64,000 bases of DNA from Laetmonice hystrix (GCA_965235115.1 OZ249436.1:2482001-2546000), one strand, 5' to 3'. Positions 3,001-42,789 are shown, numbered from the stretch's first letter. Made by a program: numbers and translations. Notes: a model not told the origin generated them from the letters alone.

Positions 3001-6000
3001 TTTTCCACTCTACTGGTTGGCCTTCCCCACTGCTTGGCCCCACAGCATACTGTTTGGCCTCACTGTAGGCCTACTCTTTGGCCTCACTGTAGTGTTCGCT
3101 TGGGTGCTAGGCCAGACGGTATACCTTGTAGCCATTCCTCCCTGTACTGTTTGGTCTTCCTCTACCGTTTGCTTGTATACAAGAGTAGCCAGTGGTATAG
3201 GGACGCCTCATGTTTCATGTTTCCATGCCTTTATTGTCCAGGAGGAAGGCCATCCGTTTCGTCTATCATCTACTCCCATCTAATCTATGTCCCCCACAGA
3301 CCATCTGTAGGCTAAGCGTCCGACAATGTTGTCAGGTCGTCCCAATGACTGTTTGCCGTAAGGCTTTAGTTAACAATGGAAAATGACGTTGTACGCCTTT
3401 TCTATATCAGATATCCCATCCCCAAGTAACAAACAAACAAAGGAAGGTTACCGAGATTTTGCAGGCAAGAAACACCAGGGTGCAGCACAACTGCACTGAA
3501 GCGGAGGGGCGGGGGTCCCCGACTGCACTGCTACCTTCCGGCTAGCGGTGGAATCACCACGTACTGGCAGGCACCTGTGGCTCTGAGGCGAGACACAGGT
3601 TAAGGCAATGATAAGCGAAAAATGGCTACATTTTTGATACGTCAAATTGAAACTAAGCCTCCCAAAACTATGATTCTTAGGCCAGATGTACGACTGTCAA
3701 ACATATAGGTCTCGTACGTTCGCTACAGCTATATGGTTGTGATGTGTACACTTCCCATTTGAGCATGTTCTCCAGATTTTAACATTAGATGCTCCTCGCC
3801 TGTACCTTTCATTTCCACTTCCTCACTGTAGTGTTTGCACCTTTCATTAGGCCAGTCGGTAAGATTTAAGGATTTCTCACTCTACTGGTTGGCCTTCCCC
3901 ACTGCTTGGCCCCACAGTGTACTGTTTGGCCTCACTGTAGGCCTACTCTTAGGCCTCACTGTAGTGTTCGCTTTGGTACTAGGCCAGACAGTATACCTTG
4001 TAGCCATTCCTCCCTGTACTGTTTGGTCTTCCTCTACCGTTTGCTTGTATACAAGAGTAGCCAGTAGTATAGGGACGCCTCATGTTTCATGTTTCCATGC
4101 CTTTATTGTCCAGGAGGAAGGCCATCCATTTCGTCTATCATCTACTCCCATCTAATCTATGTCCCCTACAGACCATCTGTAAGCGTCCGACAACGTTGTC
4201 AGGTCGTCCCAATGACTGTTTGCCGAAAAGCTTTAGTTAACAATGGAAAATGACGTTGTACGCCTTTTCTATATCAGATATCCCATCCCCAAGTAACAAA
4301 CAAACAAAGGAAGGTTACCGAGATTTTGCAGGCAAGAAACACCAGGGTGCAGCACAACTGCACTGAAGGGGGGGGGGACTCCGACTGCACTGCTACCTTC
4401 CGGCTAGCGGTGGAATCACCACGTACTGGCAGGCACCTGTGGCTCTGAGGCGAGAGACAGGTTAGGGCAATGATAAGCGAAAAATGGCTACATTTTTGAT
4501 GCGTCAAATTGAAACTAAGCCTCCCAAAACTATGATTCTTAGGCCAGATGTACGACTGTCAAACATATAGGTCTCGTACGTTCGCTACAGCTATATGGTT
4601 GTGATGTGTACACTTCCCATTTGAGCATGTTCTCCAGATTTTAACATTAGATGCTCCTCGCCTGTACCTTTCATTTCCACTACCTCACTGTAGTGTTTGC
4701 ACCTTTCATTAGGCCAGTCGGTAAGATTTAAGGATTTCTCACTCTACTGGTTGGCCTTCCCCACTGCTTGGCCCCACAGTGTACTGTTTGGCCTCACTGT
4801 AGGCCTACTCTTAGGCCTCACTGTAGTGTTCGCTTTGGTACTAGGCCAGACAGTATACCTTGTAGCCATTCCTCCCTGTACTGTTTGGTCTTCCTCTACC
4901 GTTTGCTTGTATACAAGAGTAGCCAGTAGTTTAGGGACGCCTCATGTTTCATGTTTCCATGCCTTTATTGTCCAGGAGGAAGGCCATCCGTTTCGTCTAT
5001 CATCTACTCCCATCTAATCTATGTCCCCTACAGACCATCTGTAAGCGTCCGACAACGTTGTCAGGTCGTCCCAATGACTGTTTGCCGTAAAGCTTTAGTT
5101 AACAATGGAAAATGACGTTGTACGCCTTTTCTATATCAGATATCCCATCCCCAAGTAACAAACAAACAAAGGAAGGTTACCGAGATTTTGCAGGCAAGAA
5201 ACACCAGGGTGCAGCACAACTGCACTGAAGCGGGGGGGGGGGGGGGTCCGACTGCACTGCTACCTTCCGGCTAGCGGTGGAATCACCACGTACTGGCAGG
5301 CACCTGTGGCTCTGAGGCGAGAGACAGGTTAGGGCAATGATAAGCGAAAAATGGCTACATTTTTGATGCGTCAAATTGAAACTAAGCCTCCCAAAATTAT
5401 GATTCTTAGGCCAGATGTACGACTGTCAAACGTATAGGTCTCGCACTTCGCATTTGAGTATCTTCTCCAGATTTTAACATTAGATGCTCCTCGCCTGTAC
5501 CTTTCATTTCCAGTACCTCACTGTAGTGTTTGCATGGGTACTAGGCCAGCCGGTAAGATTTAAGGATTTTCCACTCTACTGGTTGGCCTTCCCCACTGCT
5601 TGGCCCCACAGCATACTGTTTGGCCTCACTGTAGGCCTACTCTTTGGCCTCACTGTAGTGTTCGCTTGGGTGCTAGGCCAGACGGTATACCTTGTAGCCA
5701 TTCCTCCCTGTACTGTTTGGTCTTCCTCTACCGTTTGCTTGTATACAAGAGTAGCTAGTAGTATAGGGACGCCTCATGTTTCATGTTTCCATGCCTTTAT
5801 TGTCCAGGAGGAAGGCCATCCGTTTCGTCTATCATCTACTCCCATCTAATCTATGTCCCCCACAGACCATCTGTAAGCGTCCGACAACGTTGTCAGGTCG
5901 TCCCAATGACTGTTTGCCGTAAAGCTTTAGTTAACAATGGAAAATGACGTTGTACGCCTTTTCTATATCAGATATCCCATCCCCAAGTAACAAACAAACA

Positions 6001-6167
6001 AAGGAGGGTTACCGAGATTTTGCAGGCAAGAAACACCAGGGTGCAGCACAACTGCACTGAAGCGGGGGGGGGGGGGGTCTCCGACTGCACTGCTACCTTC
6101 CGGCTAGCGGTGGAATCACCACGTACTGGCAGGCACCTGTGGCTCTGAGGCGAGAGACAGGTTAAGG
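1..6167. repeat. ~865-bp tandem satellite array, block 1 (~7 monomers, continues beyond window start)
   Basis: Same monomer recurs every ~865 bp (identical spurious ORFs at 365, 1231, 2963, 3835, 4697). Monomers differ by a few substitutions and poly-G length. The last monomer is interrupted by the Merlin insertion. Confidence 0.98.
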
Positions 6168-6351
6168 GGCTCATGTCAGGGAACTGCCGTGACGTCACGC
6201 CCGGGAGAAAATGGTGGATATGCAGGAAATCCCGAAAATAGTTCCGTAAAATCATTTAAATAACAATAACGTTAGGCTGACAATAAAATGATTGGGTGGT
6301 AGGCCCTAGTAGACAGGTGCGTATGGCTACGTGGTCGATAAATTGGATAGA

Positions 6352-6702
6352 TCGGCAAGGTTTGCAGTTTGGCAGGTATAGGCAAAGTCGGAAGGTAGGC
6401 AAAGTCGGCAGGTAGGCAAAGTCGGCAGGTAGGCAGGGAGGCAAAGTCGGCAGGTAGGCAAAGTCGGCAGGTTGGCAAAGTCTGCAGGTAGCAGAAGGCA
6501 ATGTCGGCAGGGAGGCAAAGTCGGCAGGTAGGCAAGGTCGGCAGGTAGGCAAAGTCGGCAGGCAGGCAAAGTCGGCAGGTAGGCAAAGTCGGCAGGTAGG
6601 CAAAGTCGGCAGGTAGGCAAAGTCGGCAGTTTGGCAAAGAAGGCAGGTAGCAGAAGGCAAAGTCGGCAGGTAGGCAGACCGGCAAGGTTGGCAGGACGGC
6701 AG
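6352..6702. repeat. 17-bp subterminal minisatellite (GGCAAAGTCGGCAGGTA)n of the Merlin element, copy 1
   Basis: Roughly 18-20 perfect or degenerate units read directly. It explains the low-complexity LPADFAY/CRLC ORFs. Confidence 0.95.
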
Positions 6703-6957
6703 GAAGATAAGCTAGGAAAACGAAATGGGGAATGATTTTTTTGGCCAGACAGAAAGATTTGTATGCATGGAGTGTATTATACATGGACATTAATGTTAAA
6801 TGTTCATCATAATCGAATTACGAATGTTGAGGACTATGACTGCGAAGAAATCCATAATTAAAACCAGGTTAATACAATGGAATCATAAATAACTCGAAAT
6901 AAAATGTTATCCTTGTTATGTTTTATTTATTTTCATCACTTGAGCATCTTACAACGT

Positions 6958-7793
6958 GTCGATATGCAGGAATTCCGGAAAGTAGTTTGCGTCAGACATC
7001 ATTGGTGTGTATACCGTTGTAATACATGTGACTTCAGATGTTTTCACTGCACATTTAATTTATGAACATATTTTTGTTTACGGACCGGCTACACGCATTC
7101 CATTGTTGGAAGTGCAAGTGGTGTATCTCTTTGCCATGGACATCCAGATATATTAAGTTGAACGGCTCGTGCCAACCTTGTCTCGTGGCGTTATATGCGA
7201 CCTCTACACCAAGAGCCGCAGCGTCTGTTCTTCTGAAGTTATGAGGGAACCACTTCAGTTAGGAGGGCATGTAGAAGCAGTTGTGGAAATCGACGAAAAC
7301 TTATTTGGTAAAAAACGAAAATATCACCGCGGGGCAAAAACCACAGTGGGTACTCGGCTTGGTTGAAAAGCGCACTGGAAAGTTCGTGATACAAGTTGAG
7401 AATGACCGTAAGAAAGAAACATAGCAACCAATTATAAATGAGCATGTTAGGTCCGGTGCTACTATTTATTCTGATGGGTTCGTTGCTTATCAATCTATAG
7501 CTAAGGAGCAGGGTTATCATCACCGTCTTGTAAACCACAAGAAGGAATTCAAGTCTGCAGAAGGGATTTACACAAACACCATAGAGGGGTTATGGGGAAA
7601 CATCAAGTGGCGAATTAAGCGCATGAAAGGCATTTATCCAAGTCAACCGAGTGTCATTCTACACGAAGCCATGTCCCGCAAGAACAGGGGAGGCAAAGAT
7701 ATATATCATGTACTTCTGAAAGACTACGACATGATACAGAAGTCTTACCGTTTATGTGAAAAGAAAACGAAAGAGGAGCCCAGCTACAGTTAA
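6958..7793 (+). pseudogene. Merlin/IS1595-family DDE transposase, disrupted, copy 1
   Basis: Manual translation: WCVYRCNTC (Zn-ribbon-like) ... LGGHVEAVVEIDENLFGKKRKYHRG / frameshift ~7335 / QWVLGLVEKRTGK...KET*QPIINEHVRSGATIYSDGFVAY...VNHKKEF...YTNTIEGLWGNIK, TAA at 7791-7793. Catalytic D (EIDE), D (SDG) and E (TIEG) are present, with an in-frame TAG at 7422. The 5' limit is approximate. Confidence 0.92.
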
Positions 7794-7843
7794 CAATAAT
7801 AAGCGTACAGAACACTACAGTGGGGAGACTGAAATGCAGTTGG

Positions 7844-7859
7844 TTTATTGATCAATAAA
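7844..7859. terminator. Palindromic bidirectional polyadenylation signal candidate TTTATTGATCAATAAA
   Basis: Perfect 16-bp palindrome giving AATAAA on both strands, lying between the stop codons of the two convergent genes (7793 + and 8365 -). Also at 34467-34482. Confidence 0.5.
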
Positions 7860-9145
7860 AAGGCATGGATCGAATCTGTATTACACAAAGCTATTATCCA
7901 TGTGTACTTGACATAGGGAAATATACATAATTATGTTGAGGGCTAAAAAAGATCTGATGAATTATAGCTTACCCTTTTGAATGCATTCATTGCCAATTAA
8001 TAGCGTTAATGCACTATAACATTATTACTTTACGTATTTACTTTCTCTTTTTCCGCGTAACTTGCGATGATTTCGGTACAGAACGTTTTCCACTGTGACA
8101 CTCCTCCGTGACTGCAGGTTCACTACTTTGTGGTGTAGATACTACGCCTATTTGTGTGTCCTCTATCGGGTTGCTGTCGTCGCTGAAGATTTAATAGACA
8201 AGGGTAAGACATGTGTGGACAGACATATTAGGTCTATGACTAAAGTGGATTGTTTAATACTTGCCATGATGCCGCAAGAAGATGTTTACCTACCCATCCC
8301 CACTATTATACCATATATAATGGCATGTATAGATCTTAGTATGGCCGACATATAAGGACTTGACCTACATTGTGTCCGATGGGGAGGGTAGAATGGTGTT
8401 CATAAGCTCTGTGTGGGGGTGGACAAGACGAATGGCATGAAGCTCCTCCTCACTGAAGGCCGAGACGTTGTTGAATCGGGTCCTGTAGAACTCCAAGGAG
8501 GACCCCGTTTCACCTCGGTACCGATCCTCCTCAGACAGGGTGTCTGGGCGGGCCTTGAAGAAAGTGTCTGAATGAATGCCTTCCATCCTGTTCCTTCTTT
8601 TGAACCACCCTACTTTCAGGCGTTGTAAATGCTTCTAGCTCCGCTGAAATAAGCAGATAAATAGTAATTAGTTCCATATCGAAAGAGTATAGGTTATATG
8701 CAGTAGCGGCGAAGCAGACAATGTATATATATATATATATATATCGGTGGAGCCATTTTGCTTGAGGTCATTTGCGGGGGGGGGGGGGGCTTAACAAAAT
8801 TTACAAAAGCCATAGGATTATAGGGCCCCCGATAAAATCATGGCGGGCAGTGCCGCCTAACTTCCGCCGGCTATGATATGTAACACACGGAAATGGATAT
8901 ATTAGGGCTGCTGAATGTGTAGGGCTATATTATGTTAAATGCTTCTTTCTGATGGATACGGCTTTGGAGTTTTTCACATGTTTTTCCAGAACTCGCACTG
9001 TGACGATAGGGCGAATGGTAACCTCCCGTATACACTGGTAGTGCAGTCTACTGCTGTGCTAGTCATGAATGAAGGCAGTATCATTATCCCATCCCCTACA
9101 GGGGGATGGGATCTTCAGATTGTACGGTTTCGTCTTCCCTATTAT

Positions 9146-11415
9146 TATCCCATCCCCCGTCAGGGGATGGGATCTTGAAATTGTCTGGTTTCGTCTTCCC
9201 TATTATTATTATTCTTTGCGTTGTAGTAGTAGTAGTAGTAGTAGTAAACAGTGCCTCTATCTCAGTCAGTTTTCAAGATATCTCAATCAAACTTGGCTCA
9301 GATCTTGACCATGACAAAGTCAGGTCACACAATCAATCATGACGTCACGTCACGTCACGTCATGACGTCATGACGTCAAACGTGTCTTACACATTGGGGC
9401 CATAATTTTAAAGGTCATATTCGAAATTTTTAAAACCCATCATGGCGTCTTAATCAGGCAAGGATCCTGTCTCAAGTCGACCCTTCATTTGACCTTTGAC
9501 CTTTGACCTTAGGGAGAACTGGCTCCTGGGTCAGAATCGGGCTGAATCGCTACCCCTTCCCCATTTGTTGGTAAAATTTGACAATATCAGGTACTACCAC
9601 TCTACATCGAAAGGTTTAAAACATACAAAGAGGGATTAGCGATTTGACCTATATTTACTGAGCCACGTGACCTTAAAGTTTTCAACAGCGGTCAGTTGAG
9701 ACATTTATGGGTATAACTTGTAAAAGGTGCCAGATAGGGCCACAGTTACTATTGAACATGAATAGGAAGTCATATATCGTCTTTCATTTGACACCATTAT
9801 TTTGTAGGTCACGTGACCTATGACGTCATAACGACGTCACCTATATTTTCCCAGGGTTATAACTTGTAAATGGTTGAAGATAGAGCCATAGTTACTATTA
9901 AACACTTATAGAAAGTCATATATGCTCTTTCATTATACACCTTCATTTTCCAGGTCACGTGACCTATGACGTCATAGCAGTGTTGCCAATATGTCCCTAG
10001 GGCTATAACTCGTAAACGGTGCCAGATAGGGCGACAGTTACTATTGAACATGAATATGAAGTCATATATGGTCTTTCATTTGGCACCATTGTTTTGTAGG
10101 TCACGTGACCTATGACGTCATAACGACTTCACCTATATTTTCCCAGGGCTATAACTTGTAAATGGTTGAAGATAGAGCCATAGTTACTATTAAACACTAA
10201 TAGGAAGTCATATATGCTCTTTCATTATACACCTTCATTTTCCAGGTCACGTGACCTATGACGTCATAAGAATGTCATTGACATTTTCTCAGGGCTATAA
10301 CTTGTAAACTGTGCCAGATAGAGCCATAGTTACTCTTGAACACGAATAGGAAGTCATATATGGTCTTTCATTTGGCACCATTGTTTTATAAGCCACGTGA
10401 CCCATGACGTCTTAACGTCGTCACCTATATTTTCCCAGGCCCATAACTTGTAAATGGTTGAAGATAGAGCCATAGTTACTATTAAACACTAATAGGAAGT
10501 CATATATACTCTTTCATTATACACCTTCATTTTCCAGGTCACGTGACTTATGACGTCAGATCAAGGTCGCCAATATGTTCTCAGGGCCATAACTTGTAAA
10601 CGGTGCCAGATAGGGCCATAGTTGCTATTGAACACGAATAGGAAGTCATATATGGTCTTTCATTTGAGACCATTATTTTTCGGGTCACGTGACCTGTGAC
10701 GTCATAACGACGTCACCTATATTTGCCCAGCGTGATAACTTGTAAATGGATGAAGATAGAGCCATATTTACTATTAAACAGTAATAGGAAGTCATATGTA
10801 CCCTTTCATTATACACCTTCATTTTCCAGGTCACGTGACCTATGACATCATAAGAATGTCATTGGCATTTTCTAAGGGCTATAACTTGTAAATGGTTGAA
10901 GATTGAGCCTTAGTTACTAGTAAACCCTAATATGAAGTCTTATATACATGCTCTTTCATTATGCACCCATAGCTTTCCAGTCACGTGACCTATGACGTCA
11001 TAGCAAGGTCGCCAATATTTTCCCAGGGCTATAACTTGTAAATGGTGCCAGATAGGGCCATAGTTACTATTGAACACGAATAGGAAGTCATATATGCTAT
11101 TTCATTTGGCACCATTGTTTTGTACGTCACGTGACCTATGACGTCATAAGGAGGTCACCTATATATTCCCTGGGCTATAACTTGTAAATGGTTGAAGATG
11201 CAGCCATAGTTACTATGACGTCATAAGGATGTCATAAATATTCTCTCAGGGCTATAACTTGACACCTTTCCTGGCACTTCACAAACACCACTGCCTATCA
11301 CAGATGTGTCGGGAAGTGTCTGCCTTGAACGTAGCTCTTCTCAAACTCAATATCAGAAAGGACATGTCACCCCGGGGATGGGATCCATCGTGGTCTCGCC
11401 ACGACATGACTAGTT
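9146..11415 (+). mobile_element. Helentron-associated element (HINE/DINE-1-like), inner element nested in the outer one, copy 1
   Basis: Has its own 5' subTIR and inverted repeat (9146-9173), (GTA)n at 9222-9246, 146-bp core array, 3' subTIR (11374-11384), hairpin TCGTGG-TCTCG-CCACGA and CTAGTT end. Removing it restores CCCTATTATT|ATTCTTTGCG of the outer element. Confidence 0.82.
9660..11260. repeat. 146-bp tandem core array of inner HINE (~11 units, mostly alternating A/B), copy 1
   Basis: Anchor AGGTCACGTGAC (or close variant) at 9660, 9806, 9952, 10098, 10244, 10390, 10536, 10682, 10828, ~10978 and 11124. Confidence 0.93.
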
Positions 11416-11427
11416 ATTCTTTGCGTC

Positions 11428-11469
<42 letters not shown>

Positions 11470-12091
11470 AACAGTGGCGTCTATTTCAGTAAGTTTTCAA
11501 GATATCTCAATCAAATTTGGCACACATCTTGACCATGACAAGGACTGGTCAGACAATGAGTTGTGACATATCACGTGACGTGACGTATGACGTCACGTCA
11601 TGACGTTCATATTGGGAATTTCCAAACCCCATCATGGCGTTTTAATCAGGCAAGGGTCTAGTCTAACATGGACCCTTCATTTGTCATTTGACCTTGAACT
11701 TTGGGAGAACTGGGTCCTCAGTCACAAATCTCTTAAATCGCTACTCCTTCTTCATTTTTTGGTGAAATTCGACAATATTAGGCAGAAGGACTCTCTAACA
11801 TGAGCTTGTCTCAAATCATCAAAAGATAAGCGATTTGACTAATATTCGCTGAATCACGTGACTTTGAAATTTCGAAAAATTGTCAATTTTCTAGAACTTG
11901 TAAACGGTGCCAGATTTGGCATTGGTTACTATTAAACACAGATAAGAAGTCATTATGCTCTTTTATGATATTTTTTTTTTCAGGTCACGTGACCATTTTT
12001 AAAAATTAGAGGGAAAAAACAAAAAGAAAAAGAAACGTGACTCGGCCTGGGATTGAACGCGGGACCCTTCCGGTAGAAGTCCAAAAAAATA

Positions 12092-12168
12092 GGTGACTCG
12101 GCCTGGGATTGAACCGGCGACCCATAGCATGTGAGTCAAGACACTTATCGCCAGTGCTACGCCATCTG
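12092..12168 (-). pseudogene. tRNA-derived (SINE-head-like) fragment inside outer HINE, plus partial 3' duplicate at 12037-12082
   Basis: Minus strand reads TGGCGTAGCACTGG (A-box-like) ... GACTCACATG (CAC anticodon-like loop) ... GGTTCAATCCC (B-box) followed by a T run. Stems are too degenerate for a functional tRNA. Confidence 0.6.
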
Positions 12169-15100
12169 ACAAACTAATACTGGATTGAACTGGTACTGAT
12201 TACCACAGCCAGTGAACCTATATTTTGTGAGGGCTATAACTTGCTATCACTTGGTATCGTCATCCTTAAGGTCACGTGACCTGTGACGTCGTAAAGATGT
12301 CATCGATATTTTCTAAGGGATATAACTTGTTAATGCTTGAAGTTAGACCCATAGTTACTATTGAACACGAATAGGAAGTCATGTATACTCTTTCGTTTGG
12401 CATCATTATTTCTTAGGTCACGTGACCCATGACATAACGATGTCATCGATATTTTTTCAGGGTTTTAACTTGTAAATGGTAGGAGTTAGACCCATAGTTA
12501 GTATTGAATATAAACAGGAAGTCCTCATTATGTTCTTTCAATTGACACCAAGATTTATTCTGTTGTGTGATCTATTACATCCTTATGACGTAACTGAGCC
12601 CTTCTAAGGATTGTTAGAAGCCTGTAACTAGTAAACGGTGCTAGATACACCTATAGTTATTTTTGAACATGAATAGGAAGTCCATTGAGATCAATATTTA
12701 TGACGTAGCATAAGGTCATAATGACGTAACTTCCATCTTCTAAGGCTCATAAGTCGTCACGGGTGCAAGATAGTACCATAGTTATCGCTATTCAGAACAT
12801 GTTACATGGGACACCCCGGGGATGGGATCCATTGTGGTACTCCACAACGTATCTAGTTATAATATTGTTATTGAATACACTTAGGCCTAAAGGGAAAAAA
12901 ACAAAATGGCATGTTGTTTAGGTGCCGGTTCCGTGTTTTACGTCTCAGAATCTCTAATTGTATATCTGCTGCTTTCTGTATGCTACAACAAATTACAGTG
13001 CGCGATTGCTGATAGATAATGTGTAGAATGCAATGAATATAAAGTTTGACCTGGAGAAAAATCGCCTTCTGCTTCATCATCACTCCGTGAACAGCTTGCG
13101 ATGCCTGGAGAGAGTCACTGGAAACTACTTTTGGGATGTTCAGAGGCGGGATTTTAGCACTGTCACGAGGAATAAGCGTGTGTTCGATTGTTACGGATAT
13201 AACATTTCTCCCCGGTACCTCAGATGATGTGATCCATGCAGGTGTCATTTGCTGCGTCAATACAGAAGTCGGGTGATCTTCCTGTGAATCTGTTAAATGA
13301 TACACGGCATTATAGAAAGATGTTAGAAGTTGTGTTGGAACAGCTCCAGACTTCATGTTAGAGTTAATTTCCGCCGGCATTCAGAAGGGGAGAAAAGGTG
13401 TGATGGAAACATATATACTATACCAGATTCATCGCAGGTGCCAAACTGGCTATTGTAGTCTTGAATATAGTAGTCAAGATGTCCAGGAGAGTCTGGACAT
13501 CGTCACTGAAGCGGTATAGGTCGGTTTGATTTTTATGAAGCTCAAACACCAAGGTGACTGCCTACCGTTGTTCTCTTGGGTGAATAATGTTGGGAAAGTC
13601 TATCAGGAGAAGAAAACGATCCAGAAAACCATCGTCTCACGAACTCATATCGATAAGTTCATGTAGGAGAATATCCGGCTGTGTGTATATAGTGCAATGG
13701 ATAGAGCAGTCTTCGTAAATCCGCGCTCTTTGGACGCAAGTACAGCGGTCTCACCACGAGCTCCCCACATCTTGCACAGCAGTGCTCTTTCCCCCTTACC
13801 TTATACCTTGCTTGGCTGTTACGGTTGCTAGAAATCTCTGGCCTTCATCACTGGTAATTATGCCATAGCGGCCTGTCCTGCATTGGTGTGCCTGAAAAAG
13901 AATTGAGAAAGATATAAGTGAATGTATAAGAATAGCCGTTTGGGGGAAAATGAGGGGATTTATATAGGCTAAACGCAAGGCTTGTGGGGAAATAGGGTGC
14001 TGTATTAATAACCGCGTTTCATTCAACGTAGAAATGAATAATTGATGGCGTTAATATTAATGCATATGACTTTTTTTGGTGGAAAGTAAAGGTCTATCAC
14101 TATCCCTAGCCCTGACCTATTCCTAACCCCTACACTGGTCCCTAGACCTCCCAAAAACATTATCCCTAGCCCTGACCTTAACCCTAACCCTTCCCCAAAA
14201 ATTACCTGTACCTGTATACCGGCGGTGGTGTAGCTTTCCAATGCTACCATATGTCCAGTTTGTTCAGAACAGGGTCTATGATGTAATCATATGTGGTAGA
14301 TTTGCCGCCGCCCGGAGCTGATACCTGATTCAGTGAGGAGAAAAGGAACATTTAATTTTGGTACATGTATAGAGAACATAATGAGGACGTATAAAGCATA
14401 GAGAAAAGAATGAGGAATTAAGACTCGTCAAAATGAAGCCGGTGATTATTTATCACAAGACTTGTAAGTGTAGGCTACAATGTAACATCACTTTAACAAT
14501 CAGCAAATTATCATAATAGACAGTGTAGCTAATGCTATCATATGTACAGTTTTGTACAGTTATGTACAGTGTGGGGGGGGGGGCAAGTTAGCAAAAGAGA
14601 AAAATTCGCGCGGGGCAAACAATAATGAAAGCGTCACACATGCGCGTCTGTATAGTGTTAGTCCTCACCCCAATGCAAAATAGATTCAGGGGCATATATG
14701 TGTACCCTCAACATTGCCTAAAGGGCGCGTTTCCGGTCCGGATAGAGCTGCTTTAATAGGGTATAAGCCAGTCATTACCAATGTGGTAGTTGTGTTGTGG
14801 CATTCTGCGAAAATCCCAATGAAATCTGACGTGTCTTTCTTTAAGTAATTGTCCCAAACGAAGGCCTCCTTGAACGCCTGCTTATAAAGACGGTTGATAT
14901 CCTGACGGCAGTCTCTTCGGCTATTGCCGTGCAAATGGTACCTTCGCCGATGAAAATTTTGGAAAAGAATAAAGGATGCATGAATCATTATTGAACTACT
15001 ATGAACTACTAAAAGCACTATTATTGCTTTTCAAATGGACACGGGTGACTGGTTATGACCAGTGGACCGATACAGAAATAGTTACTCCTTGTGAAAGATC

Positions 15101-16166
15101 GAAACATTGTGAGATGGTGCAAGTTTCGTGAAATAGGTCAAGGCAAGTGGTCACGTTGAAACGACAGAAACGAGAGAATGGACAATGTCGACATCTCCTA
15201 GGCATAATTTCCCGTGTACACAAAAGATGCGCGAAATGCGCGAAGTCATAAACTAACAATGAATAGTCAACCACGATAATTTTAGTATTTTTTAAAAATA
15301 ACTTTTGGAGGAGGCGTAGAATATGTAGTTTAGATCTATCCGTTTTAAAAGCTTTTCGATGTTGTTTGCGACACTAGCAAAGAAAGAAGAAGCTTGTAAA
15401 CTTATATTAAATAAATCTGACAAATTCAGCCTGATTTCCGCAGGTAGGACCGATATGCTGAAGCCTACCTGAAAGATATTTTCAAATATCAAAATTACGG
15501 TTTTCAAATGCAACGAGAAATAGGCCTACATGTGGATATAATCACTTGGTATAATCACTGCTAATATATCATTGCTTGATTCTTTATATATTTAATTATC
15601 TCTCCCATTCATTCCTTGTATCATGATTAGTGAATTTCGTAATGACAGCAGGAGGCCTAAACAATTACAATATATATTGCGTAGGCCTATGCAGGTTGAC
15701 AGTCAGATGATGGCGAGCGGTCGGCACGGTCGGCAGGGTAGGCACAGTCGGCAGGGTCGGCCGGCAGTCAGACCAGGATGCTCAGCATTATAAATATTCA
15801 TTTTTTCGATGTACTAATTTGCCGGATATGACGTCATGTAAAGCGGTGGTGAAGTGGTTTTTGACCGAGGAAGTGAGGCCGCGCGCACTATTCGGCAGCC
15901 TGCTGACTTGTGCCGGTTAAGGCAATGATAAGCGAAAAATGGCTACATTTTTGATGCGTCAAATTGAAACTAAGCGTCCCAAAATTATGATTCTTAGGCC
16001 AGATGTACGACTGTCAAACATATAGGTCTCGTACGTTCGCTACAGCTATATGGTTCTGATGTGTACACTTCCCATTTGAGCATGTTCTCCAGATTTTAAC
16101 ATTAGATGCTCCTCGCCTGTACCTTTCATTTCCACTACCTCACTGTAGTGTTTGCACCTTTCATTA

Positions 16167-16696
16167 AGGGGCATATTATGAGGAAACGTTAAAAATCGGT
16201 ATTTCATAGAACTTTTGCTGTTTTCATAAAGAGATCCTTCATTAAAATTGCTTGGTAAAGAAAGACAGACTTATCAGTTTCATTTTGCGTGAGAAATCGA
16301 AGTTTATTAAGCTCCCTTGCCCGCTTCTCTGCTGATTTCGTAAAATATTTTTTGGGTGGCATTCTGATGCCGGGCAATCGAGTTCCACTGCTGAATTGTT
16401 TACAACTAAGCAAAGCACGTGACTAAGCACATGCAGAGAGTGCACACACACAGGATGTGACACAGTATGCAATTACACGGGTTGATGGGGGGTTGTCCGC
16501 CAAATTATGGCGGGAGATGTGCTATCGGGAGAAATCTATAGGTTTGGTCGTATAGAACCTACTTGTGCTGCATACGCAGCGAAAACACGTCGGAGGACAA
16601 AATGCTGTGGTAGGATTATTTACTTGAAACCCTAGTACACAGTCATGTTGGATAATTGCCGGAAATCCTCAAAAACGTGTTTCATAGCATGCCCCT
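16167..16696. mobile_element. 530-bp MITE with AGGGGCAT termini and TTA target duplication (PIF/Harbinger-like, Kolobok not excluded), copy 1
   Basis: TTA at 16164-16166 and 16697-16699, empty site CATTAGG in other monomers. Left AGGGGCATATTATGAGGAAACGTT vs revcomp right AGGGGCATGCTATGAAACACGTT. Confidence 0.85.
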
Positions 16697-18063
16697 TTAG
16701 GCCAGTCGGTAAGATTTAAGGATTTCTCACTCTACTGGTTGGCCTTCCCCACTGCTTGGCCCCACAGTGTACTGTTTGGCCTCACTGTAGGCCTACTCTT
16801 AGGCCTTACTGTAGTGTTTGCCGTAAAGCTTTAGTTAACAATGGAAAATGACGTTGTACGCCTTTTCTATATCAGATATCCCATCCCCAAGTAACAAACA
16901 AACAAAGGAAGGTTACCGAGATTTTGCAGGCAAGAAACACCAGGATGCAGCACAACTGCACTGAAGGGGGGGGGGGGGGTCTCCGACTGCACTGCTACCT
17001 TCCGGCTAGCGGTGGAATCACCACGTACTGGCAGGCACCTGTGGCTCTGAGGCGAGAGACAGGTTAAGGCAATGATAAGCGAAAAATGGCTACATTTTTG
17101 ATGCGTCAAATTGAAACTAAGCCTCCCAAAATTATTATTCTTAGGCCAGATGTACGACTGTCAAACGTATAGGTCTCGTACGTTCGCTACAGATATATGG
17201 TTGTGATGTGTACACTTCGCATTTGGGTATCTTCTCCAGATTTTAACATTAGATGCTCCTCGCCTGTACCTTTCATTTCCTCTACCTCACTGTAGTGTTT
17301 GCATGGGTACTAGGCCAGCCGGTAAGATTTAATGATTTCTCACTCTACTGGTTGGCCTTCCCCACTGCTTGGCCCCACAGCATACTGTTTGGCCTCACTG
17401 TAGGCCTACTCTTTGGCCTCACTGTAGTGTTCGCTTGGGTGCTAGGCCAGACGGTATACCTTGTAGCCATTCCTCCCTGTACTGTTTGGTCTTCCTCTAC
17501 CGTTTGCTTGTATACAAGAGTAGCCAGTAGTATAGGGACGCCTCATGTTTCATGTTTACATGCCTTTATTGTCCAGGAGGAAGGCCATCCGTTTCGTCTA
17601 TCATCTACTCCCATCTAATCTATGTCCCCCACAGACCATCTGTAAGCGTCCGACAACGTTGTCAGGTCGTCCCAATGACTGTTTGCCGTAAAGCTTTAGT
17701 TAACAATGGAAAATGACGTTGTACGCCTTTTCTATATCAGATATCCCATCCCCAAGTAACAAACAAACAAAGGAAGGTTACCGAGATTTTGCAGGCAAGA
17801 AACACCAGGGTGCAGCACAACTGCACTGAAGCGGGGGGGGGGGGTCTCCGACTGCACTGCTACCTTCCGGCTAGCGGTGGAATCACCACGTACTGGCAGG
17901 CACGTGTGGCTCTGAGGCGAGAGACAGGTTAAGGCAATGATAAGCGAAAAATGGCTACATTTTTGATGCGTCAAATTGAAACTAAGCGTCCCAAAATTAT
18001 GATTCTTAGGCCAGATGTACGACTGTCAAACATATAGGTCTCGTACGTTCGCTACAGCTATAT

Positions 18064-19439
18064 CAAAAATGGGGGATTGTAACACATCTGACAAAGTTGT
18101 CCCATTCAAATCGAACTTTTACTCAGTAGAATAGGGCTACAACAACAAACTAGGTATATTCTGAAAGCTTATCATGTCACCTTTCTACTGATGTCACATT
18201 TATCACAGTTTGATTCAATGCAACCAAGTTCTTGTGTTGTGAATGAAATGAGTACCTGGGGGGATCGGAGGAGGCGGTCGGAGGAGGCGGTGCATTTTCA
18301 ATACAGACTTCAATGTGTGGTTCTGTTATTAGCATATAGGTGTCTCTAGGTTTCCAAGAGGGTCAAAGATAGGCCAGTAGAAGGAAGCTATTTTAGTAGT
18401 GGACAGATCTTACTACAGGTAAGAACAAATTGGCCTTCCAATTCTACAATCTTGTCAACTAGTGATCGTGAGATTTTTAATCCCCTTGTTATGCTGCGCT
18501 TGTTGGTGTATTTAGATGTGTACATGGGAATGAGAAAATTGGAACAGGCACGTGGGTGTTTAGTTTGCATTGTGATCCCTATATATGAGGATTTTATGCA
18601 TAAATAGTCATGAAGGGTATACAGCTGGGACTGCCAATGGACTACGAGTTAGGAGTAGTACAACGATTTTGATTTAGGATGGTCAAGTTTACATAAAAAC
18701 GGAATTGTCATAAGGTTTTATGAATTTGAAAAACAAAAGATAAGGGTTATACTTTGACTTAAGTACCGTAGTTTTATACATATGGGCCCAGAATCGCCCG
18801 CTTCACCCCTTAGCACAACCCTTGGTAGTTGCCAGTATTATTAGGTTATTATTTCACTGTATTTGTACTAAGTCAGTACACTTTGTTGCGAGGTCCGAGG
18901 TGCAAGATGGTGCTAATTACAATTATTTAATAATTATTTATTATCTTAAGAGATTTATTTTCTCATTGTTGGCTTTTATTCAACTTTACACAGTCATGGA
19001 TTGCCCGAGGGCTCTAAATATAAAAGCTGATCATTTCCATTGCATTTTTCATGATTTTCACCCACCTGATTTTCAAAGTTCTTTTTTGTAGTCATTTTGG
19101 TGTGGGACATCAAAACATGAGGTCTCACTTGAAAGAACATTTTCTTGTCTGCATTTTGCCACCAGTTTGGTGAAATTCGGTTGATATAAGGGAAGTTAGG
19201 CTTATTTTTGTCAAACCATGTCCGTTTTGAGAAAATCAATAAAAAAGGTTGGAGTCCCAATGCATTATCCCATTGATTACGGTAATTCAATTGTACTTTA
19301 TTCATTAACGGATGGGAATAATAGAGTCAGTTTATGTGCAATTAAGAGACCTTCATTTGTTTATTTCACAGGATGAATATTGAAAAATTGACCATTTTGA
19401 CCCTGTTACACTTTTTGCCCCCAGTTCACTAATCACGAC
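18064..19439. mobile_element. 1,376-bp AT-rich insertion replacing ~48 bp of satellite, probable truncated DNA-transposon fragment, copy 1
   Basis: Satellite stops at ...CAGCTATAT (18063) and resumes at CATTAGATG (19440) with no TSD. Partial inverted motifs GGGGG..TGTAACA (left) and TGTTACA..CCCCCAGTTCACTA (right). Confidence 0.6.
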
Positions 19440-30900: not shown

Positions 30901-32974
30901 TATCCCATCCCCAAGTAACAAACAAACAAAGGAAGGTTACCGAGATTTTGCAGGCAAGAAACACCAGGGTGCAGCACAACTGCACTGAAGGGGGGGGGGA
31001 CTCCGACTGCACTGCTACCTTCCGGCTAGCGGTGGAATCACCACGTACTGGCAGGCACCTGTGGCTCTGAGGCGAGAGACAGGTTAGGGCAATGATAAGC
31101 GAAAAATGGCTACATTTTTGATGCGTCAAATTGAAACTAAGCCTCCCAAAACTATGATTCTTAGGCCAGATGTACGACTGTCAAACATATAGGTCTCGTA
31201 CGTTCGCTACAGCTATATGGTTGTGATGTGTACACTTCCCATTTGAGCATGTTCTCCAGATTTTAACATTAGATGCTCCTCGCCTGTACCTTTCATTTCC
31301 ACTACCTCACTGTAGTGTTTGCACCTTTCATTAGGCCAGTCGGTAAGATTTAAGGATTTCTCACTCTACTGGTTGGCCTTCCCCACTGCTTGGCCCCACA
31401 GTGTACTGTTTGGCCTCACTGTAGGCCTACTCTTAGGCCTCACTGTAGTGTTCGCTTTGGTACTAGGCCAGACAGTATACCTTGTAGCCATTCCTCCCTG
31501 TACTGTTTGGTCTTCCTCTACCGTTTGCTTGTATACAAGAGTAGCCAGTAGTTTAGGGACGCCTCATGTTTCATGTTTCCATGCCTTTATTGTCCAGGAG
31601 GAAGGCCATCCGTTTCGTCTATCATCTACTCCCATCTAATCTATGTCCCCTACAGACCATCTGTAAGCGTCCGACAACGTTGTCAGGTCGTCCCAATGAC
31701 TGTTTGCCGTAAAGCTTTAGTTAACAATGGAAAATGACGTTGTACGCCTTTTCTATATCAGATATCCCATCCCCAAGTAACAAACAAACAAAGGAAGGTT
31801 ACCGAGATTTTGCAGGCAAGAAACACCAGGGTGCAGCACAACTGCACTGAAGCGGGGGGGGGGGGGGGGTCCGACTGCACTGCTACCTTCCGGCTAGCGG
31901 TGGAATCACCACGTACTGGCAGGCACCTGTGGCTCTGAGGCGAGAGACAGGTTAGGGCAATGATAAGCGAAAAATGGCTACATTTTTGATGCGTCAAATT
32001 GAAACTAAGCCTCCCAAAATTATGATTCTTAGGCCAGATGTACGACTGTCAAACGTATAGGTCTCGCACTTCGCATTTGAGTATCTTCTCCAGATTTTAA
32101 CATTAGATGCTCCTCGCCTGTACCTTTCATTTCCAGTACCTCACTGTAGTGTTTGCATGGGTACTAGGCCAGCCGGTAAGATTTAAGGATTTTCCACTCT
32201 ACTGGTTGGCCTTCCCCACTGCTTGGCCCCACAGCATACTGTTTGGCCTCACTGTAGGCCTACTCTTTGGCCTCACTGTAGTGTTCGCTTGGGTGCTAGG
32301 CCAGACGGTATACCTTGTAGCCATTCCTCCCTGTACTGTTTGGTCTTCCTCTACCGTTTGCTTGTATACAAGAGTAGCTAGTAGTATAGGGACGCCTCAT
32401 GTTTCATGTTTCCATGCCTTTATTGTCCAGGAGGAAGGCCATCCGTTTCGTCTATCATCTACTCCCATCTAATCTATGTCCCCCACAGACCATCTGTAAG
32501 CGTCCGACAACGTTGTCAGGTCGTCCCAATGACTGTTTGCCGTAAAGCTTTAGTTAACAATGGAAAATGACGTTGTACGCCTTTTCTATATCAGATATCC
32601 CATCCCCAAGTAACAAACAAACAAAGGAGGGTTACCGAGATTTTGCAGGCAAGAAACACCAGGGTGCAGCACAACTGCACTGAAGCGGGGGGGGGGGGGG
32701 TCTCCGACTGCACTGCTACCTTCCGGCTAGCGGTGGAATCACCACGTACTGGCAGGCACCTGTGGCTCTGAGGCGAGAGACAGGTTAAGGGGCTCATGTC
32801 AGGGAACTGCCGTGACGTCACGCCCGGGAGAAAATGGTGGATATGCAGGAAATCCCGAAAATAGTTCCGTAAAATCATTTAAATAACAATAACGTTAGGC
32901 TGACAATAAAATGATTGGGTGGTAGGCCCTAGTAGACAGGTGCGTATGGCTACGTGGTCGATAAATTGGATAGA

Positions 32975-33325
32975 TCGGCAAGGTTTGCAGTTTGGCAGGT
33001 ATAGGCAAAGTCGGAAGGTAGGCAAAGTCGGCAGGTAGGCAAAGTCGGCAGGTAGGCAGGGAGGCAAAGTCGGCAGGTAGGCAAAGTCGGCAGGTTGGCA
33101 AAGTCTGCAGGTAGCAGAAGGCAATGTCGGCAGGGAGGCAAAGTCGGCAGGTAGGCAAGGTCGGCAGGTAGGCAAAGTCGGCAGGCAGGCAAAGTCGGCA
33201 GGTAGGCAAAGTCGGCAGGTAGGCAAAGTCGGCAGGTAGGCAAAGTCGGCAGTTTGGCAAAGAAGGCAGGTAGCAGAAGGCAAAGTCGGCAGGTAGGCAG
33301 ACCGGCAAGGTTGGCAGGACGGCAG
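32975..33325. repeat. 17-bp subterminal minisatellite, copy 2
   Basis: Same as 6352-6702. Confidence 0.95.
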
Positions 33326-33580
33326 GAAGATAAGCTAGGAAAACGAAATGGGGAATGATTTTTTTGGCCAGACAGAAAGATTTGTATGCATGGAGTGTAT
33401 TATACATGGACATTAATGTTAAATGTTCATCATAATCGAATTACGAATGTTGAGGACTATGACTGCGAAGAAATCCATAATTAAAACCAGGTTAATACAA
33501 TGGAATCATAAATAACTCGAAATAAAATGTTATCCTTGTTATGTTTTATTTATTTTCATCACTTGAGCATCTTACAACGT

Positions 33581-34416
33581 GTCGATATGCAGGAATTCCG
33601 GAAAGTAGTTTGCGTCAGACATCATTGGTGTGTATACCGTTGTAATACATGTGACTTCAGATGTTTTCACTGCACATTTAATTTATGAACATATTTTTGT
33701 TTACGGACCGGCTACACGCATTCCATTGTTGGAAGTGCAAGTGGTGTATCTCTTTGCCATGGACATCCAGATATATTAAGTTGAACGGCTCGTGCCAACC
33801 TTGTCTCGTGGCGTTATATGCGACCTCTACACCAAGAGCCGCAGCGTCTGTTCTTCTGAAGTTATGAGGGAACCACTTCAGTTAGGAGGGCATGTAGAAG
33901 CAGTTGTGGAAATCGACGAAAACTTATTTGGTAAAAAACGAAAATATCACCGCGGGGCAAAAACCACAGTGGGTACTCGGCTTGGTTGAAAAGCGCACTG
34001 GAAAGTTCGTGATACAAGTTGAGAATGACCGTAAGAAAGAAACATAGCAACCAATTATAAATGAGCATGTTAGGTCCGGTGCTACTATTTATTCTGATGG
34101 GTTCGTTGCTTATCAATCTATAGCTAAGGAGCAGGGTTATCATCACCGTCTTGTAAACCACAAGAAGGAATTCAAGTCTGCAGAAGGGATTTACACAAAC
34201 ACCATAGAGGGGTTATGGGGAAACATCAAGTGGCGAATTAAGCGCATGAAAGGCATTTATCCAAGTCAACCGAGTGTCATTCTACACGAAGCCATGTCCC
34301 GCAAGAACAGGGGAGGCAAAGATATATATCATGTACTTCTGAAAGACTACGACATGATACAGAAGTCTTACCGTTTATGTGAAAAGAAAACGAAAGAGGA
34401 GCCCAGCTACAGTTAA
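33581..34416 (+). pseudogene. Merlin/IS1595-family DDE transposase, disrupted, copy 2
   Basis: Same motifs and lesions as copy 1 (ORF track 33792-33989 shows VVEIDENLFGKKRKYHRG). Confidence 0.92.
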
Positions 34417-35768
34417 CAATAATAAGCGTACAGAACACTACAGTGGGGAGACTGAAATGCAGTTGGTTTATTGATCAATAAAAAGGCATGGATCGAATCT
34501 GTATTACACAAAGCTATTATCCATGTGTACTTGACATAGGGAAATATACATAATTATGTTGAGGGCTAAAAAAGATCTGATGAATTATAGCTTACCCTTT
34601 TGAATGCATTCATTGCCAATTAATAGCGTTAATGCACTATAACATTATTACTTTACGTATTTACTTTCTCTTTTTCCGCGTAACTTGCGATGATTTCGGT
34701 ACAGAACGTTTTCCACTGTGACACTCCTCCGTGACTGCAGGTTCACTACTTTGTGGTGTAGATACTACGCCTATTTGTGTGTCCTCTATCGGGTTGCTGT
34801 CGTCGCTGAAGATTTAATAGACAAGGGTAAGACATGTGTGGACAGACATATTAGGTCTATGACTAAAGTGGATTGTTTAATACTTGCCATGATGCCGCAA
34901 GAAGATGTTTACCTACCCATCCCCACTATTATACCATATATAATGGCATGTATAGATCTTAGTATGGCCGACATATAAGGACTTGACCTACATTGTGTCC
35001 GATGGGGAGGGTAGAATGGTGTTCATAAGCTCTGTGTGGGGGTGGACAAGACGAATGGCATGAAGCTCCTCCTCACTGAAGGCCGAGACGTTGTTGAATC
35101 GGGTCCTGTAGAACTCCAAGGAGGACCCCGTTTCACCTCGGTACCGATCCTCCTCAGACAGGGTGTCTGGGCGGGCCTTGAAGAAAGTGTCTGAATGAAT
35201 GCCTTCCATCCTGTTCCTTCTTTTGAACCACCCTACTTTCAGGCGTTGTAAATGCTTCTAGCTCCGCTGAAATAAGCAGATAAATAGTAATTAGTTCCAT
35301 ATCGAAAGAGTATAGGTTATATGCAGTAGCGGCGAAGCAGACAATGTATATATATATATATATATATCGGTGGAGCCATTTTGCTTGAGGTCATTTGCGG
35401 GGGGGGGGGGGGCTTAACAAAATTTACAAAAGCCATAGGATTATAGGGCCCCCGATAAAATCATGGCGGGCAGTGCCGCCTAACTTCCGCCGGCTATGAT
35501 ATGTAACACACGGAAATGGATATATTAGGGCTGCTGAATGTGTAGGGCTATATTATGTTAAATGCTTCTTTCTGATGGATACGGCTTTGGAGTTTTTCAC
35601 ATGTTTTTCCAGAACTCGCACTGTGACGATAGGGCGAATGGTAACCTCCCGTATACACTGGTAGTGCAGTCTACTGCTGTGCTAGTCATGAATGAAGGCA
35701 GTATCATTATCCCATCCCCTACAGGGGGATGGGATCTTCAGATTGTACGGTTTCGTCTTCCCTATTAT

Positions 35769-38038: not shown

Positions 38039-38050
38039 ATTCTTTGCGTC

Positions 38051-38092
<42 letters not shown>

Positions 38093-38714
38093 AACAGTGG
38101 CGTCTATTTCAGTAAGTTTTCAAGATATCTCAATCAAATTTGGCACACATCTTGACCATGACAAGGACTGGTCAGACAATGAGTTGTGACATATCACGTG
38201 ACGTGACGTATGACGTCACGTCATGACGTTCATATTGGGAATTTCCAAACCCCATCATGGCGTTTTAATCAGGCAAGGGTCTAGTCTAACATGGACCCTT
38301 CATTTGTCATTTGACCTTGAACTTTGGGAGAACTGGGTCCTCAGTCACAAATCTCTTAAATCGCTACTCCTTCTTCATTTTTTGGTGAAATTCGACAATA
38401 TTAGGCAGAAGGACTCTCTAACATGAGCTTGTCTCAAATCATCAAAAGATAAGCGATTTGACTAATATTCGCTGAATCACGTGACTTTGAAATTTCGAAA
38501 AATTGTCAATTTTCTAGAACTTGTAAACGGTGCCAGATTTGGCATTGGTTACTATTAAACACAGATAAGAAGTCATTATGCTCTTTTATGATATTTTTTT
38601 TTTCAGGTCACGTGACCATTTTTAAAAATTAGAGGGAAAAAACAAAAAGAAAAAGAAACGTGACTCGGCCTGGGATTGAACGCGGGACCCTTCCGGTAGA
38701 AGTCCAAAAAAATA

Positions 38715-38791
38715 GGTGACTCGGCCTGGGATTGAACCGGCGACCCATAGCATGTGAGTCAAGACACTTATCGCCAGTGCTACGCCATCTG
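38715..38791 (-). pseudogene. tRNA-derived fragment, copy 2
   Basis: Same as 12092-12168. Confidence 0.6.
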
Positions 38792-41700: not shown

Positions 41701-42789
41701 ATAGTTACTCCTTGTGAAAGATCGAAACATTGTGAGATGGTGCAAGTTTCGTGAAATAGGTCAAGGCAAGTGGTCACGTTGAAACGACAGAAACGAGAGA
41801 ATGGACAATGTCGACATCTCCTAGGCATAATTTCCCGTGTACACAAAAGATGCGCGAAATGCGCGAAGTCATAAACTAACAATGAATAGTCAACCACGAT
41901 AATTTTAGTATTTTTTAAAAATAACTTTTGGAGGAGGCGTAGAATATGTAGTTTAGATCTATCCGTTTTAAAAGCTTTTCGATGTTGTTTGCGACACTAG
42001 CAAAGAAAGAAGAAGCTTGTAAACTTATATTAAATAAATCTGACAAATTCAGCCTGATTTCCGCAGGTAGGACCGATATGCTGAAGCCTACCTGAAAGAT
42101 ATTTTCAAATATCAAAATTACGGTTTTCAAATGCAACGAGAAATAGGCCTACATGTGGATATAATCACTTGGTATAATCACTGCTAATATATCATTGCTT
42201 GATTCTTTATATATTTAATTATCTCTCCCATTCATTCCTTGTATCATGATTAGTGAATTTCGTAATGACAGCAGGAGGCCTAAACAATTACAATATATAT
42301 TGCGTAGGCCTATGCAGGTTGACAGTCAGATGATGGCGAGCGGTCGGCACGGTCGGCAGGGTAGGCACAGTCGGCAGGGTCGGCCGGCAGTCAGACCAGG
42401 ATGCTCAGCATTATAAATATTCATTTTTTCGATGTACTAATTTGCCGGATATGACGTCATGTAAAGCGGTGGTGAAGTGGTTTTTGACCGAGGAAGTGAG
42501 GCCGCGCGCACTATTCGGCAGCCTGCTGACTTGTGCCGGTTAAGGCAATGATAAGCGAAAAATGGCTACATTTTTGATGCGTCAAATTGAAACTAAGCGT
42601 CCCAAAATTATGATTCTTAGGCCAGATGTACGACTGTCAAACATATAGGTCTCGTACGTTCGCTACAGCTATATGGTTCTGATGTGTACACTTCCCATTT
42701 GAGCATGTTCTCCAGATTTTAACATTAGATGCTCCTCGCCTGTACCTTTCATTTCCACTACCTCACTGTAGTGTTTGCACCTTTCATTA

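Follow-up and report, generated by a model that had tools for sequence, protein, structure and literature searches.

We analysed a 64,000-nt stretch of the Laetmonice hystrix genome (GCA_965235115.1 OZ249436.1:2482001-2546000, one strand; the window, at its full length), in which a Merlin-superfamily DNA transposon at positions 6168-15914 holds a DDE transposase pseudogene and, pointing toward it, a broken second gene that we assign through intact relatives to the DUF3987 ATPase family. A satellite array with a period of ~865 bp makes up the window, and a few insertions break it. The element interrupts the satellite cleanly, the left flank running to 6167 and the right flank resuming at 15915, and both flanks map onto the same eight bases in sister monomers (for example, 17927-17934). 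These bases, GGTTAAGG, stand on either side of the element as an 8-bp target-site duplication (TSD; 6160-6167 and 15915-15922) and occur as a single copy in sister monomers. When the empty site was rebuilt from the left flank, one TSD copy and the right flank, it matched all four uninterrupted monomers with which it was compared in a 3-kb reference stretch, two at 56/56 bases and two at 55/56.

The ends of the element are terminal inverted repeats (TIRs) at 6168-6189 (plus strand, beginning with GG) and 15893-15914 (minus strand, ending in CC), and they agree at 16/22 positions when one is reverse-complemented. The termini read 5'-GGCTCATG...CAAGTGCC-3'. Such GG...CC ends fit Merlin-type TIRs, and a CC at the 3' end is what the relevant passage of a Merlin survey leads one to expect (PMC8101967).

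On the plus strand, positions 6903-7793 hold a transposase pseudogene of the IS1595/Merlin type. Its segment 7425-7793 matched PF12762 (DDE_Tnp_IS1595; curated cut-off 27 bits) at 43.2 bits (E 5.4e-11), and the longest open reading frame (ORF) of the sister copy L009, 233 aa in length, reached 71 bits (E 1.4e-19). Compared by eye from translations, the contexts of the catalytic D, D and E (EIDEN, YSDGF and NTIEG) resemble those in an intact Merlin transposase (437 aa) of the same genome, EIDES, ISDCW and NTIES. An in-frame TAA at 7154-7156 is common to all five full-length copies of the element, and the relative P0023 has L at that position; a frameshift near 7340-7366 and a TAG at 7422-7424 are private to the window copy. 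The transposase relatives are nine proteins from short contigs, at 41-49% identity. Across the assembly (627 Mb in 35 contigs, given here as C-numbers, which is the scope of all genome-wide searches below), PF12762 gave 19 matches, ordinary Merlins included, and two such ordinary Merlins measure 2.6-2.8 kb with a single ORF (437 or 409 aa).

The minus strand carries, by our reconstruction, a gene of at least six exons that is convergent with the transposase gene, the two stop codons lying ~250 bp apart. Positions of exons and motifs were counted by hand from the sequence, its ORFs and the alignments, which yields a predicted exon model. Exon 1 (~14946-14669, donor GTGAGG at 14668) would encode the N-terminal domain; residues 5-71 of the intact relative P0034 match 14946-14725 (E 9.8e-9). 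Exon 2 (14324-14212) contains the Walker A motif APGGGKST at 14318-14295 and, further along, ESYTTAGIQ. It is bounded on both sides by phase-0 GT..AG introns, introns 1 and 2, which split sequence that is uninterrupted in paralogues, such as the strand before the P-loop. Exon 3 (13891-13424) contains Walker B (IITSDEG, 13861-13841), LLCKMWG, a T/QP motif near 13687-13680 and DDGFLDRFL from 13636, and residues 143-242 of a second relative, P0006, match the block 13897-13592 (E 5.6e-14). Walker A and Walker B are also conserved across an alignment of 23 relatives.

The downstream exons follow the same order. Exon 4, in the ORF 13051-13380, ends at 13051 before a donor GT at 13050-13049; its last residues, KQKAIFLQ, resemble KQKSIFLE of the metagenome relative L050, and the position coincides with an exon end in that relative. 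Exon 5 (~8643-8369) holds the C-terminal 'HPH' region, with P0006 residues 475-507 matching 8505-8407; its acceptor lies at 8643 or 8634, possibly at the cost of one extra frameshift. The putative last exon, exon 6 (8182-8041, in the ORF 8038-8190, with acceptor AG at 8184-8183), ends in KKRK before a stop at 8040-8038 and has an acidic tail similar to the end of L050. All exons read on the minus strand, and tblastn matches of P0034 and P0006 run collinearly on it from 14946 down to 8407. Since these matches begin at about residue 5 of intact relatives and reach the HPH region near the C terminus, the gene is complete in extent and is no captured fragment.

Intron 4 is interrupted by a nested 3,761-bp stretch (9088-12848) that is missing from L009, L010, L011 and L012. 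In all four, 9087 joins 12849 across a ~10-bp duplicated site, so the stretch is a later insertion; without it, the element measures 5,986 bp. Two related units, divided by a break near 11413, make up the nested insert; the first contains a 146/292-bp tandem array (9712-11216), and each has a (GTA)n run at its start and a similar ~40-bp sequence at its end. ARAGORN found no tRNA in the insert. The window also harbours a higher-order duplication of 26.6 kb (1359-30590 against 27976-57198, 99.62% identical over 29,239 columns), so that insertions of the first copy recur at +26,623 bp. The whole unit, nested insert included, stands again at 32791-42537 (plus strand) in 100% identical stretches at that offset. 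This second occurrence is a duplicated locus and no second transposition event.

Much of this anatomy had been proposed in a first-pass annotation of the window: a unit at 6168-15914 bounded by TSDs and TIRs, an IS1595-type transposase on the plus strand, a convergent multi-exon gene on the minus strand, a nested insert of 3.77 kb and a net element of ~6 kb. The empty-site match, the PF12762 hits, the exon model and the measured lengths bear all of it out. The same annotation listed five ATPase motifs; all five do lie on the minus strand, but the stretch read as T/QP contains a 2-bp insertion, and a TGA stands directly before DDGFLDRF.

The family of the second gene emerged from its relatives. 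With P0001, a 116-aa read-through translation of the sister copy L011 in which TGA was written as X, phmmer returned five proteins at E <= 1e-3 (1.2e-8 to 2.6e-4) among 1.84 billion representative proteins; a word-based search with P0001 for longer proteins returned none. Among the five is P0006, a 513-aa protein of Mytilus edulis that stands for 22 Mytilus sequences clustered at >=90% identity and spread over many contigs, some of which carry the name 'RAD54' in their source. Together with its kin it matched PF13148 (DUF3987) at 83.9 bits (E 1.7e-23) and nothing else above threshold. A further search gave 17 family members, Mytilus edulis and Mercenaria mercenaria sequences among them, and 17/17 carry PF13148 alone. 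We therefore class the second gene as a DUF3987-family gene, an assignment made by homology to these intact proteins. Multi-copy and nearly identical to one another, the bivalve relatives have the look of mobile genes rather than of single host genes. Several Mytilus edulis proteins of the family (P0006, P0012, P0019 and P0031) go by 'RAD54' or 'RAD54L' in their source; in the three that were scanned, Pfam reports DUF3987 only, and the naming looks like a mis-annotation.

Could the minus-strand gene instead be a chance string of motifs in non-coding DNA? No piece of it in the window reaches the Pfam threshold and its frame is broken at several places, as such an artefact would have it. We give that explanation practically no weight, and the protein matches refute it: a chance string would not be expected to find relatives at E 1.2e-8 among 1.84 billion proteins, to align collinearly with full-length relatives at E values down to 5.6e-14, or to have an intron position in common with a metagenome relative.

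To place the fold, we turned to a structural model of an intact relative. The AlphaFold2 model of P0034, built with 23 aligned relatives, had a mean predicted local distance difference test score (pLDDT) of 75.1, with values below 50 at residues 455-561. In Foldseek, all PDB matches listed for this model were MCM chains (E 4.5e-8 to 1e-5), at template-modelling scores of only 0.29-0.36. P0034, as distinct from the broken gene itself, thus models as an MCM-like AAA+ fold. A C-terminal winged helix domain is described, in the part of the source that treats them, as a trait of superfamily 6 (SF6) MCM-like helicases (PMC4889955).

A metagenome scan for ATPase relatives gave two contigs of 1.3 and 1.8 kb, too short to include a transposase, and a scan of viral contigs for ATPase relatives gave none. 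One transposase relative (P0027) and one ATPase relative (P0039) each lie on a 2,087-bp Logan contig, perhaps the same one; with ~150 protein pairs, a chance agreement in length is plausible.

We next looked for further copies in the assembly, using DNA searches with three parts of the unit and then retrieving the loci. Four further full-length copies were found: L009 (C3), L010 (C4), and L011 and L012 (both C2). The five full-length loci have different flanks and an identical order and orientation of parts, at pairwise identities of 93.3-96.8%. L012 is flanked by the 8-bp TSD GCAATGAT, unlike the GGTTAAGG of the window copy. The TSD is verifiable in these two of the five copies; in the remaining three, an end or flank is lost or rearranged. 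All sister copies also share a subterminal 17-bp tandem repeat (6379-6650 in the window, 16.2 copies) whose copy number varies. The two genes move together within one pair of ends. Partial copies lie on C30 (three loci), C19, C5, C18 and C20.

These copies bear on a possible two-element origin, in which a second element, bounded by ends of its own and bearing the ATPase gene, would have become nested in, or fused to, a Merlin. Nesting is frequent here: besides the 3.76-kb insert of the window, private insertions of 458 bp (L011) and 910 bp (L009) are found in sister copies, and truncated copies on C30 keep the ATPase part without the transposase part. Yet in 5/5 full-length copies the two halves meet at the same junctions, and no second pair of ends or second target duplication was seen there. 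Two of the C30 loci share their flanks at 98-99.6%, so they represent one truncated copy, since duplicated; it ends at the Merlin right end and breaks at the site of the nested insert. No ATPase-only locus of the clade was found in the genome. On this evidence we consider a two-element origin very improbable. That the truncated C30 copy and the nested insert break at the identical site suggests an insertion hot spot.

Two further features of the sister copies deserve mention. The private insertions noted above sit in the ATPase gene, in exon 1 of L011 and near exon 5 of L009, and the 458-bp insertion of L011 has inverted ends and looks like a miniature inverted-repeat transposable element (MITE). 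At L015 (G000:C30:12584000-12593000, ~2967-2971), the right and left ends of partial copies abut tail to head with 3 bp (AAC) between them, the sole case of such an end-to-end junction in the genome; it may have arisen by tandem insertion or be left over from a joined-ends (circle-type) form.

Taken together, we think it probable that the element is what remains of a Merlin lineage in which autonomous copies encoded an ATPase of the MCM-like, helicase type. A number of findings weigh against this reading, the first group of them concerning the state of the gene. No start codon was found for the ATPase gene in the exon 1 region. In Pfam scans of single-exon translations, 0/10 pieces of the window matched PF13148 (curated cut-off 27 bits), and P0001 itself scored 13.2 bits (E 0.052), below the cut-off, its alignment falling at the expected profile positions, 200-242. 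Exon 1 ends in a frame break near 14690 that leads to an in-frame TGA (14688-14686) in 4/5 copies; L010 reads through owing to four extra bases in a TA run. A 7-bp frameshifting insertion near 13807-13801 is present in all four full-length copies that keep the region (the window copy, L010, L011 and L012), the region being deleted in L009 and read through in the C19 fragment. A frameshifting 2-bp (CA) insertion within 13687-13680, at T/QP, likewise occurs in 4/4 full-length copies keeping the region, and the TGA at 13639-13637, directly before DDGFLDRF, is found at 8/8 loci that cover the position. To these shared ATPase lesions is added the transposase TAA, in 5/5 copies.

No intact copy was found in the assembly. 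It follows that the copies seen could spread without requiring the ATPase in cis. All of them, 93-97% identical, form a single young family and hence document one evolutionary event; the gene pairing is known from this one genome, whose ordinary Merlins are without an ATPase gene. Nor did we find a primase between the ends of the element, which enclose only the transposase gene, the ATPase gene and repeats.

Other lesions are less widely shared. A frameshift near 13480 occurs in all five full-length copies and not in the C30 copy, and a 1-bp deletion in the Walker A exon is private to the window copy. In contigs of three DNA sequencing runs from one sample, covering 13420-13900, no variants appeared at the TGA, the 2-bp site or the 7-bp site; such contigs drop rare variants and are no proof that an intact copy is absent. 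Both genes are pseudogenes in every copy, and the shared lesions mean that the founder of the present copies was already broken in ATPase and transposase alike.

The strongest alternative is that a Merlin captured the ATPase gene once, from another mobile element or a lost host gene, and that the gene decayed as cargo with no role in transposition. We regard this as possible though unlikely. In its favour, the shared ATPase lesions are older than the spread of all copies, the other Merlins of the genome are single-gene elements, and one family attests one event; further DUF3987 loci lying away from PF12762 matches, described next, show that donors of such a kind exist. Against it, the copies also have a nonsense codon in common in the transposase, so the ATPase gene was not alone in decaying, and the latter gene is complete from its N- to its C-terminal region with introns of its own. 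The bivalve relatives, in turn, look multi-copy and mobile, unlike single host genes. Moreover, no donor was found: a search of the genome with P0034 gave 18 matches at 10 loci, 10/10 of them in copies or fragments of the element. The ATPase clade in this genome is confined to the element, with no donor locus outside it.

A genome-wide search with PF13148 itself missed the element and revealed other DUF3987 loci. Those we term family A are DUF3987-like repeats with a ~5-kb unit (L040, C12:18.03 Mb; L041, C3:0.5 Mb; L044, C8:30.84 Mb). Family A matches PF13148 at 34 bits (E 2.4e-8) and aligns in order with the ATPase exons of the element (tblastn E 1e-6 to 9e-5 in a 42.5-kb database). As a source of the captured gene it fares poorly, being a distant clade with ~33-58% identity to the element's gene over short stretches. 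Its copies are 92-98% alike and contain stop codons, the L040 unit is flanked by ~450-bp repeats, and no transposase was seen in the unit. None of the other DUF3987 loci adjoins any of the 19 PF12762 matches.

Two of these other loci are of a different kind. At L046 (G000:C8:6.2 Mb), positions 4218-6560 hold an open 781-aa frame that matches the C-terminal half of DUF3987 at 41.1 bits. The frame has a long tail of low complexity and a P-loop region of degenerate appearance, and it may be a domesticated, non-catalytic relative. At L042 (G000:C5:34.63 Mb; positions 1-2605 and 4616-5113), a DUF3987-like gene is preceded, 2 kb upstream, by large transposase-like ORFs of KDZ/CACTA-like appearance. 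The transposase-like family has at least 63 genomic matches, many with open frames of 800-900 aa and no Pfam match. We rejected this as a second transposase-DUF3987 pairing on finding a 99% identical copy on C11 with no DUF3987 neighbour; the adjacency at L042 may be chance.

The search results support the DUF3987-like identity that the first-pass annotation had suggested, by way of intact relatives (83.9 bits, with a phmmer link at 1.2e-8) and with no direct match of window pieces. They also bear on the convergent co-occurrence that it proposed to check: within this genome the two genes co-occur in this way at five full-length loci, two with verifiable, different 8-bp TSDs. Its interpretation is supported in part: the two-gene Merlin unit is there, but a dedicated accessory role, as opposed to cargo, finds no support in copies that form a single family with shared lesions.

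The distribution of the element provides a separate view of its activity. All five full-length copies lie in or against the ~865-bp satellite, with insertion points within ~105 bp of the monomer; on the monomer reference these fall at ~899, ~902, 976 (inverted), 988-995 and 996-1003, and those of the window copy and L012 are 8 bp apart. The clustering could reflect target preference or survival in heterochromatin. We also considered that the satellite derives from the element and rejected this, as no similarity between the two was found beyond a best match of 11 bp (E 0.049). Two other interruptions of the satellite in the window, at 16157-16700 and 18064-19439, match only their own segmental duplicate.

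A 31-mer from the left end had 347 genomic matches with up to three mismatches, against 0 for a control. Both of the matches sampled are 142-bp MITEs (L051, 87-228; L052, 75-216) that have both of the long element's asymmetric ends, including its right TIR, and perfect 8-bp TSDs, GACTTACC and GACGACGC; the two lie outside satellite sequence. Clearly, the element ends were active. Some of the 31-mer matches on C7 (27.28-27.53 Mb) look tandemly arrayed, at a spacing of ~7.5 kb.

These observations show the following history. A ~6.0-kb Merlin-superfamily element inserted into the satellite with an 8-bp duplication; afterwards the 3.76-kb nested insertion entered an intron of the ATPase gene; and last, the 26.6-kb segmental duplication copied the element with its surroundings. 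The ATPase gene would have been part of the autonomous ancestor, and no recent pickup from the host. If the DUF3987 helicases of bacterial mobile elements are a guide, its product may have worked on the DNA of the element as a motor of the ring helicase type, possibly in unwinding at the ends or target, or in replication or repair coupled to transposition. The present copies would stem from a master that had already lost the function of both genes, and they may have spread with proteins supplied in trans, or after the ATPase had become dispensable.

A bolder generalization is that MCM-like DUF3987 helicases form an unrecognised functional accessory module of eukaryotic DDE transposons, in a Merlin lineage here, perhaps in KDZ-type elements elsewhere, and intact and active in bivalves; the broken copies described above would then be relics of an autonomous two-gene element that drove the ~350 MITE-type ends. 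We hold this to be doubtful. If it were true, the DUF3987 module would point to replication-coupled or helicase-assisted transposition, or to helicase-guided choice of target.

The multi-copy mussel proteins catalogued as 'uncharacterized' or 'RAD54' are probably transposon genes, and if intact pairs exist in bivalves, the use of a ring helicase to a DDE transposon becomes directly testable. In Laetmonice hystrix itself the element is a fossil, with the local biological effect of any dead repeat in a satellite.

Among known systems, the element belongs first with the Merlin superfamily, of which Feschotte (2004) is said to be the founding paper. It shares with that superfamily the DDE_Tnp_IS1595 domain, the 8-bp TSD (Merlin duplications measure 8-9 bp), the GG...CC ends, subterminal tandem repeats and MITE derivatives. 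It differs from the described one-gene Merlins in its ~6.0-kb length and in its second, convergent, intron-bearing gene of putative DUF3987 type. Three curated bivalve Merlins are reported, in the section that lists them, to average 1,635 bp (PMC10294476). The 2021 survey of eukaryotic Merlins contains, supplements aside, neither 'helicase' nor 'ATPase' in the portion consulted, which mentions only a chance antisense ORF (PMC8101967). A Merlin-DUF3987 pairing, or DUF3987 in any eukaryotic transposon, was not found in the literature searched (Repbase and Dfam lay outside its scope), in keeping with the first-pass annotation, which knew of no description of the pairing.

The second gene draws the comparison toward phage and prokaryotic replication proteins. 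Published mentions of DUF3987, as represented by the literature search, concern phages and bacterial and archaeal elements, and those that involve transposons are bacterial only. The relevant parts of the sources describe the family as SF6, MCM-related and divergent, with phage helicases among its members (Kazlauskas et al. 2016; PMC4889955), note the absence of such SF6 helicases among the eukaryotic viruses examined (PMC4889955), and report the DUF3987 protein AgaPH to be a 5'-3' helicase dependent on ATP or dATP (PMC11724360). The MCM matches of the P0034 model fit both this view of the family and the activity measured for AgaPH. The gene of the element resembles these helicases in its family as assigned through intact relatives (83.9 bits), in its Walker A and B motifs, and in the MCM-like fold of a modelled relative. 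Unlike the phage and prokaryotic proteins, which usually have a primase adjacent or fused and serve replication, it lies in an animal nuclear genome, has what appear to be spliceosomal-type introns and accompanies a DDE transposon.

The nearest precedent for a helicase partner is Kolobok. KolobokH and Kolobok-1_CCri carry a RecQ helicase, according to the passage that describes them (PMC9587614). Like the present element, Kolobok is a cut-and-paste DDE transposon with a helicase gene, which in the described Kolobok-1_CCri is likewise on the complementary strand. The transposase superfamily is another one, however, and the helicase there is RecQ (SF2), whereas here it would be DUF3987 (SF6/MCM-like); as described, the Kolobok helicases also come from intact families, and here all copies are dead. 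A helicase partner is hence not new in kind, and it is the combination of Merlin and DUF3987 that is absent from the literature searched. The element would lengthen a short list of cut-and-paste transposons with helicase partners.

Bacterial transposons offer a further parallel in IstB of IS21, TnsC of Tn7 and MuB of Mu, separate ATPases that work with a DDE transposase and are AAA+ binders of target DNA. By analogy, the element would pair a transposase with a second, nucleotide-dependent protein, which could select or prepare the target. It differs from IS21, Tn7 and Mu in that the partner is of DUF3987 type, and the copies clustered in the satellite had a broken ATPase by the time they inserted there. 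Merlins have been seen as minimal single-gene transposons, and DUF3987/SF6 proteins as belonging to phages and bacterial mobile elements; the animal family described here appears to join the two.

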